Below, piece after piece: positions 1-62,926 of a stretch of DNA of 64,000 nt. Within the stretch, counting starts at the first letter, position 1; each line of letters starts with the position of its first letter. The DNA lies in the NCBI RefSeq assembly GCF_044324875.1, contig NZ_CP172185.1. One strand, written 5' to 3'. This DNA comes from Escherichia coli. Lineage in GTDB: Bacteria > Pseudomonadota > Gammaproteobacteria > Enterobacterales > Enterobacteriaceae. The notes beneath the pieces are model-generated. The model searched no databases, was not told the origin of the DNA, and worked only from the letters and a program-made list of their open reading frames with translations. Made by a program: the position numbers and the translations under genes.

Positions 1-956
1 TGCAAGGCGAACCGGAAGTCAAAGTAGAGTCAGCCGAACGTCATCATGCGATGGTTAACTTCTGGCGAACCACACTTTCCTGCATTCTGGGGACGCTTTT
101 CTGGCTGTGGACGGGCTGGACTTCCGGCAGTGGTGCAATGGTGATGATTGCGGTAGTGACGTCACTGGCAATGCGTTTGCCGAATCCACGCATGGTGGCG
201 ATCGACTTTATCTACGGGACGCTGGCAGCGCTGCCGTTAGGGCTGCTCTACTTTTTGGTGATTATCCCTAATACTCAACAGAGCATGTTGCTGCTGTGTA
301 TTAGCCTGGCAGTGCTGGGATTCTTCCTCGGTATAGAAGTACAGAAACGGCGACTGGGCTCGATGGGGGCGCTGGCCAGCACCATAAATATTATCGTGCT
401 GGATAACCCGATGACTTTCCATTTCAGTCAGTTTCTCGACAGCGCATTAGGGCAAATCGTCGGCTGTGTGCTCGCGTTCACCGTTATTTTGCTGGTGCGG
501 GATAAATCGCGCGACAGGACTGGACGTGTACTGCTTAATCAGTTCGTTTCTGCTGCTGTTTCCGCGATGACTACCAATGTGGCACGTCGTAAAGAGAACC
601 ACCTCCCGGCACTTTATCAGCAGCTGTTTTTGCTGATGAATAAGTTCCCAGGGGATTTGCCGAAATTTCGCCTGGCGCTGACGATGATTATCGCGCACCA
701 GCGCCTGCGTGATGCGCCGATCCCGGTTAACGAGGATTTATCGGCGTTTCACCGACAAATGCGCCGCACAGCAGACCATGTGATATCTGCTCGTAGCGAT
801 GATAAACGTCGTCGGTACTTTGGCCAGTTGCTGGAAGAACTTGAAATCTATCAGGAAAAGCTACGCATCTGGCAAGCGCCACCGCAGGTGACGGAACCGG
901 TTCATCGGCTGGCGGGGATGCTCCATAAGTATCAACATGCGTTGACCGATAGTTAA
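1..956 (+). CDS. aaeB: C-terminal part of AaeB-like efflux pump subunit (FUSC family); 5' end lies outside the window
   Basis: Frame open from window edge to stop at 954-956; C-terminus matches my recollection of AaeB; hairpin plus T-run follows. Confidence 0.8.
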
Positions 957-2537: not shown

Positions 2538-2833
2538 AGTCAGCCCTGAAGAAGGCTGAAATAATGTTATGAAAGAGCGGGATTTTATCAAATTTCGTTA
2601 TTGAGAAACATGCCTGCGTCACGGCATGCAAATTCTGCTTAAAAGTAAATTAATTGTTATCAAATTGATGTTGTTTTGGCTGAACGGTAGGGTATATTGT
2701 CACCACCTGTTGGAATGTTGCGCTAATGCATAAGCGACTGTTAATTACGTAAGTTAGGTTCCTGATTACGGCAATTAAATGCATAAACGCTAAACTTGCG
2801 TGACTACACATTCTTGAGATGTGGTCATTGTAA

Positions 2834-27908: not shown

Positions 27909-30245
27909 ATGAAGCAAATTCGTCTGCTGGCGCAGTATTATGTTGACCTGATGATGAAGTTAGGTCTGGTGCGCTTCTCAATGTTGCTGGCGCTGGCCCT
28001 CGTCGTTCTTGCCATTGTGGTACAAATGGCGGTAACCATGGTGCTGCATGGTCAGGTCGAAAGCATTGATGTTATTCGTTCTATCTTCTTTGGTTTGCTG
28101 ATTACGCCGTGGGCGGTCTACTTTCTATCGGTGGTCGTCGAGCAACTGGAGGAGTCACGGCAACGTCTGTCACGGCTGGTGCAAAAACTGGAGGAGATGC
28201 GCGAGCGCGATTTGAGCCTCAACGTTCAGTTAAAAGATAATATTGCCCAGCTAAATCAGGAAATCGCCGTTCGTGAAAAAGCGGAAGCAGAACTGCAGGA
28301 AACCTTCGGCCAACTGAAAATTGAAATCAAAGAGCGCGAAGAGACACAAATTCAGCTCGAGCAGCAATCCTCATTCTTACGTTCCTTCCTTGATGCTTCA
28401 CCCGACCTGGTTTTTTATCGTAACGAAGATAAAGAGTTTTCTGGCTGTAACCGCGCGATGGAGCTGCTGACCGGAAAAAGCGAAAAACAACTGGTTCACC
28501 TGAAACCTGCTGATGTTTACTCACCGGAAGCCGCTGCGAAAGTCATTGAAACTGATGAAAAAGTGTTCCGTCATAATGTGTCACTGACCTATGAGCAGTG
28601 GCTGGATTATCCCGACGGACGCAAAGCCTGCTTTGAAATTCGTAAAGTGCCGTACTACGACCGCGTGGGTAAACGTCACGGTTTGATGGGCTTTGGTCGC
28701 GACATTACCGAGCGTAAGCGGTATCAGGATGCGCTTGAACGGGCCAGCCGCGACAAAACGACGTTTATCTCCACCATCAGTCACGAATTGCGTACACCGC
28801 TGAATGGTATCGTCGGCCTGAGCCGCATTCTGCTGGATACCGAACTCACCGCCGAGCAGGAAAAATATCTCAAAACCATCCATGTTTCGGCCGTCACGCT
28901 CGGGAATATCTTCAACGATATTATCGACATGGATAAGATGGAACGGCGTAAGGTCCAGCTTGATAATCAGCCGGTTGATTTCACCAGCTTCCTTGCCGAT
29001 CTGGAAAATCTCTCCGCATTGCAGGCGCAACAAAAAGGATTGCGCTTTAATCTGGAGCCTACGCTGCCATTACCGCATCAGGTCATTACCGACGGGACGC
29101 GTTTGCGGCAGATCCTGTGGAATCTCATCAGTAACGCCGTCAAATTCACCCAGCAAGGCCAGGTTACCGTGCGCGTGCGCTACGATGAAGGCGATATGCT
29201 GCATTTTGAAGTGGAAGACTCTGGTATCGGCATTCCGCAGGATGAGCTGGATAAAATCTTTGCCATGTATTACCAGGTGAAAGACAGTCATGGCGGTAAA
29301 CCTGCCACCGGCACCGGTATTGGTCTGGCCGTTTCTCGTCGTCTGGCGAAAAATATGGGCGGCGATATTACGGTTACCAGCGAACAGGGCAAAGGTTCTA
29401 CCTTTACGTTGACGATCCACGCACCGTCGGTGGCTGAAGAGGTCGATGATGCGTTTGATGAAGACGATATGCCTTTACCGGCGCTGAATGTGCTGCTGGT
29501 GGAAGACATTGAACTGAACGTGATTGTCGCGCGTTCTGTGCTGGAAAAATTAGGTAACAGCGTTGATGTCGCCATGACCGGCAAGGCGGCGCTGGAGATG
29601 TTTAAACCGGGCGAATACGACCTGGTATTGCTGGATATTCAGTTGCCAGATATGACCGGGCTGGATATCTCTCGTGAACTGACGAAGCGTTATCCGCGCG
29701 AGGATTTACCGCCGCTGGTGGCCTTAACCGCTAACGTGCTGAAAGACAAGCAAGAGTACCTCAATGCTGGAATGGATGATGTGCTGAGTAAGCCGCTTTC
29801 TGTTCCGGCGCTAACCGCGATGATCAAGAAATTCTGGGATACCCAGGATGATGAGGAAAGTACGGTGACGACAGAAGAGAACAGTAAATCAGAAGCATTG
29901 CTCGATATTCCCATGCTGGAACAGTATCTCGAACTTGTAGGACCGAAGCTGATCACCGACGGGTTAGCGGTGTTTGAGAAGATGATGCCGGGCTATGTCA
30001 GCGTGCTGGAGTCGAATCTGACGGCGCAGGATAAAAAAGGCATTGTTGAGGAAGGACATAAAATTAAAGGTGCGGCGGGGTCAGTGGGGTTACGCCATCT
30101 GCAACAGCTGGGTCAGCAAATTCAGTCTCCTGACCTTCCCGCCTGGGAAGATAACGTCGGTGAATGGATTGAAGAGATGAAAGAAGAGTGGCGTCACGAC
30201 GTAGAAGTACTGAAAGCGTGGGTGGCAAAAGCCACTAAAAAATGA
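27909..30245 (+). CDS. arcB: Aerobic respiration control sensor kinase ArcB
   Basis: 778-aa ORF with HisKA/HATPase, receiver and HPt regions. Confidence 0.96.
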   Translation: MKQIRLLAQYYVDLMMKLGLVRFSMLLALALVVLAIVVQMAVTMVLHGQVESIDVIRSIFFGLLITPWAVYFLSVVVEQLEESRQRLSRLVQKLEEMRERDLSLNVQLKDNIAQLNQEIAVREKAEAELQETFGQLKIEIKEREETQIQLEQQSSFLRSFLDASPDLVFYRNEDKEFSGCNRAMELLTGKSEKQLVHLKPADVYSPEAAAKVIETDEKVFRHNVSLTYEQWLDYPDGRKACFEIRKVPYYDRVGKRHGLMGFGRDITERKRYQDALERASRDKTTFISTISHELRTPLNGIVGLSRILLDTELTAEQEKYLKTIHVSAVTLGNIFNDIIDMDKMERRKVQLDNQPVDFTSFLADLENLSALQAQQKGLRFNLEPTLPLPHQVITDGTRLRQILWNLISNAVKFTQQGQVTVRVRYDEGDMLHFEVEDSGIGIPQDELDKIFAMYYQVKDSHGGKPATGTGIGLAVSRRLAKNMGGDITVTSEQGKGSTFTLTIHAPSVAEEVDDAFDEDDMPLPALNVLLVEDIELNVIVARSVLEKLGNSVDVAMTGKAALEMFKPGEYDLVLLDIQLPDMTGLDISRELTKRYPREDLPPLVALTANVLKDKQEYLNAGMDDVLSKPLSVPALTAMIKKFWDTQDDEESTVTTEENSKSEALLDIPMLEQYLELVGPKLITDGLAVFEKMMPGYVSVLESNLTAQDKKGIVEEGHKIKGAAGSVGLRHLQQLGQQIQSPDLPAWEDNVGEWIEEMKEEWRHDVEVLKAWVAKATKK

Positions 30246-30357
30246 CCCCGGCTAGACCGGGGTGCGCGAATACTGCGCCAACACCAGGGAAATCTTGGCT
30301 GCGCCGTAAATTATTATGATGAGTTACAAGGGCACAGCACTGTTTTTCAGGCCGCAC
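30237..30357 (-). ncRNA. arcZ: ArcZ (SraH/RyhA) Hfq-dependent sRNA, antisense to the arcB 3' end
   Basis: Minus strand reads GTGCGGCCTGAAAAACAGTGCTGTGCCCTTGTAACTCATCATAATAATTTACGGCGCAGCCAAGATTTCCCTGGTGTTGGCGCAGTATTCGCGCACCCCGGTCTAGCCGGGGTCATTTTTT, matching my recollection of ArcZ including the terminal hairpin and U-run. Confidence 0.8.
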
Positions 30358-30474
30358 GCAGTTAAGATAGCAAAACTTAAATGATTTGTTACATGAATCA
30401 GTTAAATGTGTGATGCGTAGCATTTTTATTAAAAAAATTAATGTGTTTCAGTCAATTGCGAAAGGATGATCACA

Positions 30475-31128
30475 ATGAAGAAAATTGGCGTAATTCTGAG
30501 CGGATGCGGCGTCTATGACGGTTCTGAAATTCATGAAGCGGTGTTGACGTTGTTAGCTATTTCACGCAGCGGTGCACAGGCGGTCTGCTTTGCACCGGAT
30601 AAACAGCAGGTTGATGTTATCAACCATTTAACGGGCGAAGCGATGACGGAAACGCGCAATGTGCTGATTGAAGCGGCACGAATAACGCGCGGTGAAATCC
30701 GTCCTCTGGCCCAGGCCGATGCCGCTGAACTGGATGCGTTGATTGTGCCGGGGGGGTTTGGCGCGGCGAAGAATTTAAGCAATTTTGCCAGTCTTGGTCG
30801 CGAATGCACCGTTGACCGTGAATTAAAGGCGCTGGCACAAGCGATGCATCAGGCCGGAAAACCGCTTGGTTTTATGTGTATTGCCCCGGCGATGCTGCCG
30901 AAAATTTTCGATTTCCCGCTGCGTTTGACCATCGGTACTGATATCGATACCGCAGAAGTGCTGGAAGAGATGGGTGCGGAGCATGTGCCGTGTCCTGTCG
31001 ATGATATCGTGGTTGATGAAGACAACAAGATTGTCACCACCCCGGCATATATGCTGGCGCAGAACCTTGCAGAAGCGGCGAGCGGCATTGATAAGCTGGT
31101 TTCCCGCGTGCTGGTCCTGGCGGAATGA
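30475..31128 (+). CDS. elbB: DJ-1/PfpI-like glyoxalase ElbB (YhbL)
   Basis: ORF 30466-31128; start at ATG 30475 giving [21 protein letters not shown] (217 aa). Confidence 0.9.
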
Positions 31129-51972: not shown

Positions 51973-52048
51973 AATCTCGCGCTAACAACCTGGAATCGAG
52001 CCGTCATACTACGGCGCAACGCCCTATAAAGTAAACGATGACCCTTCG

Positions 52049-52125
52049 GGAACTTCAGGGTAAAATGACTATCAAAATGTGAATTGTAGCTGACCTGGGA
52101 CTTGTACCCGGGTCGGTATTTTTTT
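52049..52125 (+). promoter_or_regulatory. greA leader: sigma-E-type promoter followed by an intrinsic terminator (GraL-type leader RNA)
   Basis: GGAACTT, 16-bp spacer, TCAAA (52049-52076); then GACCTGGG...CCCGGGTC hairpin plus TTTTTTT (52092-52125) upstream of greA. Confidence 0.45.
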
Positions 52126-58776: not shown

Positions 58777-58863
58777 GCCGAGGTGGTGGAATTGGTAGAC
58801 ACGCTACCTTGAGGTGGTAGTGCCCAATAGGGCTTACGGGTTCAAGTCCCGTCCTCGGTACCA
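58777..58863 (+). tRNA. leuU: tRNA-Leu (anticodon GAG)
   Basis: GCCGAGGTGGTGGAATTGGTAGACACGCTACCTTGAGGTGGTAGTGCCCAATAGGGCTTACGGGTTCAAGTCCCGTCCTCGGTACCA; cloverleaf with long variable arm and encoded CCA. Confidence 0.93.
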
Positions 58864-62643: not shown

Positions 62644-62720
<77 letters not shown>

Positions 62721-62842
62721 CTTTCCCTTAGAGTCCTTTTTCAAATATACTGTGAAGACTTCGGCCTTCGTAGTGGGATTTGAAAAAATCCTTCTGGAAA
62801 GTGCTCCAGACCGCAGTTGCGGTTATAGGGTTCAGTTATATA

Positions 62843-62868
62843 AAGCCCCGATTTATCGGGGTTTTTTG
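62843..62868 (+). terminator. Intrinsic terminator/attenuator between metY and rimP
   Basis: AAGCCCCGATTTATCGGGGTTTTTTGTT. Confidence 0.8.
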
Positions 62869-62926
62869 TTATCTGACTACAGAATAACTGGGCTTTAGGC
62901 CCTTTTTTTATGTCTTGGGGGTGGGC

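Follow-up and report, generated by a model that had tools for sequence, protein, structure and literature searches.

On its minus strand at positions 30237-30357, the window (the whole 64,000-nucleotide stretch of Escherichia coli DNA analyzed here) almost certainly carries the free-standing gene arcZ (sraH/ryhA), which encodes an Hfq-dependent small regulatory RNA (sRNA) and is located between arcB and elbB. This is a well-known and ordinary E. coli sRNA gene, and the finding is already known. An earlier note on this DNA had placed the 121-nt ArcZ sRNA on this strand, antisense to the 3' end of arcB, and had proposed a covariance-model search as a check. We ran that search, and the Rfam model RF00081 matched the minus strand from 30357 to 30250 with 120.8 bits, nearly twice the gathering score of 66 (E 4.1e-27); the match spans model positions 1 to 106 of 106, is not truncated, and lies far above chance. 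The minus-strand letters of 30237-30357, GUGCGGCCUGAAAAACAGUGCUGUGCCCUUGUAACUCAUCAUAAUAAUUUACGGCGCAGCCAAGAUUUCCCUGGUGUUGGCGCAGUAUUCGCGCACCCCGGUCUAGCCGGGGUCAUUUUUU, are identical at 121 of 121 nt to the noncoding RNA arcZ of E. coli K-12 MG1655 (b4450). The ends given here for the gene, a 5' G at 30357 and a 3' end after the U-tail at 30237, were adopted from the K-12 annotation. These results bear out the identification, against which no evidence emerged, and the convergent arrangement with the 3' end of arcB agrees with the coordinates, with MG1655, and with the literature (PMC11331407). The gene and its neighbors are as follows.

30237-30357, minus strand: arcZ primary transcript, 121 nt (RF00081 and identity to b4450)
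27909-30245, plus strand: arcB, sensor histidine kinase of 778 amino acids, convergent with arcZ (NF008302 and RefSeq annotation)
30475-31128, plus strand: elbB, on the promoter side of arcZ (NF008747 ElbB, 355 bits; RefSeq start at 30475)
30237-30245, both strands: 9-bp overlap of the arcZ and arcB 3' ends, AAA AAA TGA (Lys-Lys-stop) on the plus strand and UCAUUUUUU on the minus strand

The arcB open reading frame (ORF) scored 1483 bits against the ArcB equivalog NF008302 (cut-off, 838) and ends in a TGA stop codon at 30243-30245. For the elbB ORF, an alternative start is possible at 30466. In MG1655, b4450 (3350577..3350697) has the same neighbors and orientation, and it shares the 9-nt overlap with arcB (3350689..3353025, opposite strand). 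Across the 271 nt compared, two substitutions separate the window from MG1655: one lies in arcB, the other approximately 63 nt upstream of the arcZ 5' end. The promoter-proximal 113 nt contain a single base change and the gene itself contains none. The differences indicate an E. coli strain distinct from K-12. The 401 nt around the locus are 100% identical to those of E. coli strain 7/2 and others.

The RNA can be divided into a variable 5' half and a conserved 3' portion, with the elements listed below.

30298-30338, minus strand: 5' stem-loop, ArcZ nt 20-27 paired with nt 53-60 (Rfam consensus structure), in the variable half that is lost on processing
30290-30294, minus strand: RNase E recognition motif G-A/U-U-U (R-N/W-U-U), predicted cut at the slash, between 30293 and 30292
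30237-30292, minus strand: processed 56-nt ArcZ, probable active form (after PMC11331407)
30274-30289, minus strand: conserved seed CCCUGGUGUUGGCGCA, ArcZ nt 69-84, a conserved element named in PMC11331407
30264-30278, minus strand: second hairpin GCGC-AGUAUUC-GCGC, nt 80-94 (Rfam structure, single-sequence fold, and RNAalifold)
30237-30263, minus strand: Rho-independent terminator, stem-loop ACCCCGGU-CUA-GCCGGGGU (30263..30245) and tail CAUUUUUU (30244..30237)

The terminator scan called an 8-pair stem with 6 G-C pairs, a 3-nt loop, and the tail CAUUUUUU. Its G+C core, CCCCGG/CCGGGG (30262..30246), adjoins the arcB stop codon; of the whole terminator, just the pair that closes the stem (A-U, with its U at 30245) and the tail are superimposed on that codon and the last two lysine codons. 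The terminator therefore overlaps the stop codon, the stem by 1 nt. The claim in the earlier note that the terminator hairpin overlaps the arcB stop thus holds for the terminator as a whole, mainly through its U-tail, and fails for the stem proper beyond that single nucleotide.

Compensatory base changes among 112 homologous sequences support both the 5' stem and the terminator as predicted structures. The whole Rfam-derived structure was paired in 90.1% of cells, compared with 29 to 49% when the 3' partners were slid. The terminator was paired in 99.9% of cells, with compensatory changes in 2 of 7 pairs, and two of its pairs change from G-C to A-U in 20 to 22 of the 112 sequences; for the 5' stem, 76.5% of cells were paired and 7 of 8 pairs showed compensatory changes. 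The second hairpin shows no variation in the alignment, a consequence of its falling within the pattern by which the loci were retrieved. RNAalifold, applied to the MAFFT alignment of the 112 sequences, recovered the two 3' hairpins and missed the 5' stem, since that half aligns poorly, whereas the pair counts on the Rfam-derived structure reveal its covariation. A single-sequence minimum-free-energy fold of the 121 nt (z = -2.7) gave a long-range 5'/3' pairing at odds with the Rfam consensus and was set aside.

The RNase E motif (G64-A65/U66-U67-U68) lies directly 5' of the seed, with 56 nt remaining 3' of the cut, and it occurs at the same position in 79 of 112 homologues. The motif and a 56-nt ArcZ product have been described (PMC11331407), and a 56-nt product of a 121-nt RNA (121-56) places the predicted cut exactly at GA/UUU. 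The 56-nt form folds with a single-stranded 5' seed, a small hairpin, and the terminator (-20.6 kcal/mol). We infer the function of the window copy from the literature through its 100% identity to K-12 arcZ (mechanism and regulation, PMC11331407 and PMC4152358). The 121-nt primary transcript would be bound by Hfq, RNase E would cut between A65 and U66 to leave a stable 56-nt 3' fragment, and the single-stranded 5' seed of this fragment would pair with target mRNAs. Translation of rpoS would be activated by opening of the inhibitory leader hairpin and prevention of premature Rho termination, while mutS, flhDC, tpx, and sdaC would be among the repressed targets and decay of the sRNA CyaR would be triggered. 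Pairing of the window copy with the rpoS leader is expected from the literature and from sequence identity to the tested RNA. RNAduplex analysis did not discriminate: when the seed was paired with the rpoS leader of MG1655, 330 of 1,000 and 479 of 500 shuffles equaled or bettered the observed energy, and against the arcB mRNA, too, the energies were no better than those of shuffled seeds. We take both results as uninformative and not as evidence against pairing.

The gene is nearly universal in the species. Of 5426 complete E. coli genomes, 5416 carry one copy of arcZ, which is at least 99% identical in 5395. The exact 26-nt core including the seed occurs in at least 120 species of Enterobacterales, although invariance of the core across species is partly forced, as the loci were collected by exact-match search. 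In the Enterobacterales orthologues (Salmonella, Erwinia, Dickeya, Photorhabdus, Xenorhabdus, Yersinia, and others), the 3' portion UU-CCCUGGUGUUGGCGCAGUAUUCGCGC-ACCCC is invariant, as here, and the terminator with a 6- to 8-U tail and the convergent arcB are shared. The 5' halves vary in sequence and length, the promoter -10 element differs (TATGAT type), and in Morganellaceae-type loci the terminator stem reads CCCCAA/UUGGGG. The earlier note had also warned that protein-centered annotation would miss the gene; accordingly, arcZ was unannotated in 18 of 18 pipeline-annotated RefSeq records sampled, the matching stretch being labeled there as arcB or elbB alone.

Upstream of the gene, two further elements were noted.

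30364-30392, minus strand: putative sigma-70 promoter, -35-like GTAACA (30392..30387), 17-bp spacer, extended -10 TGcTATCTT (30372..30364)
30396-30413, minus strand: conserved upstream block TCACACATTTAACTGATT, about -40 to -57 (phylogenetic footprint, 67 loci)

A consensus promoter scan of 30000-30600 reported no sigma-70 site. The putative promoter, identified by eye, ends 7 nt upstream of the arcZ 5' end, matches the consensus hexamers at 4+4 of 12 positions, and carries the TG of an extended -10; it is absent from the scan because 8 of 12 matches fall below the cut-off of 9 of 12, and we therefore used cross-species conservation instead. TTTGcTATCTTA and GTAACAA are at least 95% conserved in 67 enterobacterial loci, with the -10 part biased by the choice of loci on ATCTTA. 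The block at 30396-30413 is a candidate binding site for a regulator, of noncanonical type. Transcription of arcZ is described as high in aerobic stationary phase and would be repressed by ArcB/ArcA-P at low oxygen; our statements on the ArcA/ArcB-ArcZ loop are taken from reviews. In the arcZ promoter region (30358-30465) we found no match to the ArcA box GTTAATTAAATGTTA (up to 3 mismatches) or to TGTTA-N6-TGTTA (up to 2 mismatches). The same ArcA-box scan picked up the mdh promoter site at 2644-2670, which indicates that the scan works. The literature is in disagreement here: according to a review, the arcZ promoter is bound by ArcA-P (PMC11331407), whereas ArcA ChIP-seq detected no site upstream of the gene (PMC3798270). 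The lack of both a canonical box and a ChIP-seq site makes direct binding of ArcA-P less certain than reviews imply.

The position of arcZ against arcB raises the question of whether the RNA acts mainly as a cis antisense RNA to the arcB 3' end, with its trans roles secondary, a reading that we regard as improbable. The tail-to-tail arrangement is certainly conserved: arcB is convergent to arcZ in all 117 usable Enterobacterales loci, its stop codon is positioned exactly as here, abutting the terminator, in 98 of these species loci, and it falls inside the expected ArcZ transcript in about 102. However, the overlap with annotated arcB amounts to just 9 nt, within the Hfq-binding U-tail, and in 13 of the 117 loci the arcB stop lies at least 30 nt past the core, so that arcB ends short of arcZ and no overlap exists, yet seed and tail are unchanged. 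The invariant part of the RNA is the seed for trans targets, and more than 300 trans interactions have been reported for ArcZ (PMC11331407).

That the region is merely the arcB 3' untranslated region (UTR) and terminator, with a minus-strand resemblance to ArcZ that has no independent function, is hardly credible. A hairpin does follow directly after the arcB stop, and hairpins placed after genes are often terminators, but the T-run after it is present on the minus strand only (the plus-strand flank reads UGCGCGAAUAC), which leads us to reject this reading. The terminator scan called no plus-strand terminator in 30000-30600, leaving arcB without an intrinsic terminator of its own. Moreover, the covariance-model match reaches approximately 90 nt past the hairpin, a conserved promoter-like element stands at the 5' end on the minus strand, curated annotation of K-12 includes an ncRNA gene at this position, and a discrete minus-strand transcript is reported for the identical K-12 sequence (PMC11331407). 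We likewise give almost no credence to, and rejected, a small protein encoded by the 62-codon minus-strand ORF at 30235..30423 with the RNA as its messenger, for although the ORF appears in the mechanical ORF list, it matched no NCBIfam family, its start codon, an ATG at 30423, precedes the annotated 5' end of the RNA by 66 nt, and its part in the arcZ 5' half carries many indels and substitutions between species while the noncoding structural elements are conserved.

With arcZ thus read as a free-standing sRNA gene, its overlap with arcB may still have a meaning of its own. ArcZ is described as lowering arcB expression, and arcB mRNA may in turn be an antisense RNA against ArcZ, which would give a mutual-repression loop. 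The arcB sequence AAA AAA TGA is the mirror image of the Hfq-binding tail UCAUUUUUU, and 98 of 117 species retain this arrangement. Lacking an intrinsic terminator, arcB transcripts would run antisense through all of arcZ, and this read-through would perhaps also be a source of transcriptional interference. We therefore raise, as a tentative proposal that we consider more doubtful than probable, that the overlap is a two-way constraint and not an accident of close packing, and that arcB transcripts serve as a full-length ArcZ sponge. If this were true, mutual repression would operate largely at the level of RNA or transcription, with no need for a canonical ArcA operator at the arcZ promoter, in keeping with the absence of both an ArcA box and a ChIP-seq peak.

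DsrA and RprA are, like ArcZ, Hfq-dependent activators of rpoS translation, and they act on the rpoS leader in the same general way (PMC4152358). They differ from ArcZ in sequence, locus, and signal, and share no family membership with it; unlike ArcZ, they are active without RNase E processing and have no antisense partner gene. In arrangement, ArcZ resembles sRNAs of the GadY/gadX type, which are convergent with a regulatory gene of their own pathway and overlap its 3' end. GadY acts by extended complementarity in the gadX 3' UTR, whereas the overlap of ArcZ with the arcB coding sequence is limited to 9 nt and the conserved ArcZ seed targets unlinked mRNAs.

The window copy adds nothing new to ArcZ biology. 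Its practical value is one of annotation: a nearly invariant E. coli gene is missing from the sampled pipeline records, so that a protein-centered reading of the locus overlooks a regulator for which interactions with hundreds of mRNAs have been reported. In enteric bacteria, ArcZ ties oxygen and redox sensing by ArcB/ArcA to the general stress response (RpoS), motility, mutagenesis, and virulence.

The window was scanned in full against Rfam 15 at gathering thresholds. One of the five matches, to minus-strand positions 30357..30250, was ArcZ (RF00081), with 120.8 bits (gathering score, 66; E 4.1e-27) over 106 of 106 model positions and no truncation. The earlier note had placed a 121-nt ArcZ sRNA on this strand beside arcB and proposed a covariance-model search as its check; the match was found, and curated arcZ of E. 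coli K-12 MG1655 proved identical at 121 of 121 positions. In that annotation, the ncRNA gene arcZ (b4450) lies at 3350577..3350697, with arcB on the opposite strand at 3350689..3353025 and a 9-nt overlap. Across the alignment of the window with MG1655, 2 of 271 positions differ, both in the flanks, which points to a non-K-12 strain of E. coli as the source; the 401 bases around arcZ have 100% identity with many complete E. coli chromosomes. The 121-nt sequence, which reads GUGCGGCCUG...CCCCGGUCUAGCCGGGGUCAUUUUUU from 30357 to 30237, is single copy in 5,416 of 5,426 complete E. coli genomes, with at least 99% identity in 5,395; the other 10 lack a match, and one of the matches is to a plasmid record. 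The gene belongs to the ArcZ family; all of the family's defining features that are testable in sequence are present. It is, as the earlier note acknowledged, already known.

The neighbors of arcZ were identified by protein family. A 778-codon open reading frame (ORF) at 27909..30245 (+) encodes ArcB (NF008302; 1,483 bits against a cutoff of 838); after its TGA stop at 30243-30245 come CCCCGGCTAGACCGGGG and intergenic DNA that reaches to the next plus-strand ORF. On the promoter side lies ElbB (NF008747; 355 bits), whose ORF has a possible start at ATG 30466 (+), for 220 residues, and a RefSeq start at ATG 30475, for 217. A 62-codon minus-strand ORF spanning arcZ had no protein-family match in the same search that identified ArcB and ElbB.

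With nt 1 set at G30357, the RNA has the following parts, all on the minus strand:

30338..30298, minus strand: 5' stem-loop, nt 20-27 paired with nt 53-60 (Rfam-derived structure)
30294..30290, minus strand: RNase E motif G64-A65↓U66-U67-U68, fitting the published R-N↓W-U-U rule (PMC11331407)
30289..30274, minus strand: conserved seed CCCUGGUGUUGGCGCA, nt 69-84
nt 80-94, minus strand: second hairpin, GCGC-AGUAUUC-GCGC
nt 95-113, minus strand: terminator stem-loop, followed by the tail CAUUUUUU, nt 114-121

The RNase E cut predicted at A65↓U66 would yield exactly the published 56-nt product, 30292..30237 (PMC11331407), whose fold leaves the first 14 nt unpaired ahead of the two hairpins (-20.6 kcal/mol). 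For the complete 121-nt RNA, the minimum-free-energy fold disagreed with the consensus structure and was set aside. The Rfam model ends within the terminator loop, and the final 13 nt of the interval (30249..30237) lie beyond it; these were covered by a terminator scan, which placed a stem-loop at 30263..30245 with 8 pairs (6 G-C), a loop of 3 and the tail CATTTTTT, on the minus strand only.

Conservation was examined through an exact 26-mer, CCCTGGTGTTGGCGCAGTATTCGCGC, which was found in at least 120 loci when one genome per species was searched. The 80 matches listed belong to genera that we take to be Enterobacterales, barring a few metagenome bins titled only "Proteobacteria bacterium"; they include Escherichia, Citrobacter, Enterobacter, Kluyvera, Pantoea, Erwinia, Serratia, Rahnella, Yersinia, Photorhabdus, Xenorhabdus, Proteus, Providencia and Morganella. 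When 112 distinct arcZ regions were aligned, the 5' half was variable, with many insertions and deletions, and the 3' part was invariant, which is the textbook pattern. Invariance of the 26-mer itself is forced by the exact-match collection of loci, but it reaches past the 26-mer, taking in the preceding UU, the following ACCCC and the GGGGU-YA-UUUUU tail. The R-N-W-U-U motif immediately precedes CCCUGG in 79 of the 112 sequences, and the tail has 6 to 8 U in 109.

Paired positions in the same alignment were occupied by pairs in 90.1% of cells when the Rfam-derived structure plus terminator was taken as given, and in 29 to 49% when the 3' partners were slid by 1 to 3 columns. Compensatory changes were seen in 7 of the 8 pairs of the 5' stem, and two terminator pairs switch from G-C to A-U, in 20 to 22 sequences; the middle hairpin shows no variation and is hence uninformative for covariation. 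From this alignment, RNAalifold independently predicted the two 3' hairpins. The outer 3-bp helix of RF00081 (G73-G74-U75 with A95-C96-C97; 30250-30285, minus strand) shares bases with the terminator stem A95..U113, so both cannot form at once; of these two exclusive structures, covariation in the aligned sequences supports the terminator.

The earlier note had stated that the terminator hairpin overlaps the arcB stop codon. This holds for the closing pair A95-U113, whose U lies at 30245, and for the tail, but the G+C core (30262..30246) only abuts the stop. ArcZ UCA (nt 113-115) complements the TGA, and UUUUUU complements the last two codons, AAA AAA; the Lys-Lys-stop end of arcB at 30237-30245 is the exact mirror of the tail UCAUUUUUU. 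When the C-terminal 149 residues of the window's ArcB were used as a tblastn query, arcB was convergent with arcZ in 117 of 117 loci having enough flank. The stop begins 18 to 21 nt after the 26-mer in 98 of these (19 nt in the window) and falls within the expected U-tail in 4 more. In 13 loci (Pantoea, Mixta and others), arcB ends at least 30 nt off and does not overlap arcZ; the ArcZ tail is retained there, which suggests that this juxtaposition is constrained by the RNA and not by the protein. In two outliers, Serratia sp. M24T3 (locus L082) and Pantoea sp. 1.19 (locus L016), the extended arcB frame continues beyond its normal stop position and enters the arcZ terminator or core, probably an alignment-frame artifact. 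On the arcB strand, the terminator scan showed neither a T-run behind the hairpin nor any other plus-strand terminator ahead of elbB. Therefore, arcB transcripts may run antisense across arcZ, with complementarity far above 9 nt.

Upstream of arcZ, an extended -10 element, TGcTATCTT (30372..30364, minus strand), ends 7 nt ahead of nt 1 and is separated by a 17-bp spacer from a -35-like hexamer, GTAACA (30392..30387, minus strand). This putative promoter was absent from the output of a consensus scan because its 8 of 12 hexamer matches fall under the cutoff. Among the 67 loci with an Escherichia-type -10, most positions of TTTGcTATCTTA, GTAACAA and an upstream block, TCACAcATTTaAcTGAtT (30413..30396), are at least 95% conserved. 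A 2024 review describes binding of ArcA-P to the arcZ promoter region (PMC11331407). In 30358-30465, we found no ArcA box matching GTTAATTAAATGTTA (up to 3 mismatches) or TGTTA-N6-TGTTA (up to 2 mismatches). Both searches match 2644-2670 (+), between argR and mdh, where two ArcA-box-like direct repeats, AGTAAATTAATTGTTA and TGTTATCAAATTGATG, overlap each other; ArcA-P is known to target mdh directly (PMC3798270), and this positive control indicates that the scan works. ArcA-P may bind directly through a noncanonical site, perhaps the conserved block at 30396-30413, or control of arcZ by ArcA may be indirect.

Identity, architecture and conservation were observed directly for the arcZ of the window, and because this copy is identical to the RNA studied, the published mechanism (PMC11331407, PMC4152358) would carry over to it. 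The gene would be transcribed in aerobic stationary phase, with ArcB/ArcA-P repressing it when oxygen is low. Hfq would bind ArcZ, and RNase E would cleave it to give the active 56-nt form, whose seed would pair with many mRNAs, activating translation of rpoS and repressing mutS, flhDC, tpx and sdaC, among others, as well as the sRNA CyaR. ArcZ would also lower arcB expression, and the arcB mRNA is thought to act antisense to ArcZ, which together would form a mutual-repression switch. Duplex energies of the seed with the MG1655 rpoS leader or arcB mRNA were no better than those of shuffled seeds, a calculation that says nothing either way.

Other RNA elements were located in the window. A full-length enterobacterial greA leader (RF01769; 127.5 bits, gathering score 60) at 52003-52124 (+), with a terminator-like hairpin at its end, is another noncoding element that an ORF track would miss. 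A tRNA-Leu (anticodon GAG) with a long variable arm lies at 58777-58863 (+). About 90 nt beyond a tRNA-Met (anticodon CAT) at 62644-62720 (+) comes a full-length rimP leader (RF01770; 102 bits against 47) at 62809-62909 (+), and the two are the start of the metY-rimP-nusA region. The expectation that protein-centered annotation would miss arcZ was borne out: each of the 18 listed RefSeq E. coli records with pipeline annotation has only arcB or elbB under the match, unlike the curated MG1655 record, which annotates arcZ. This annotation gap is the sole practical point of the finding.
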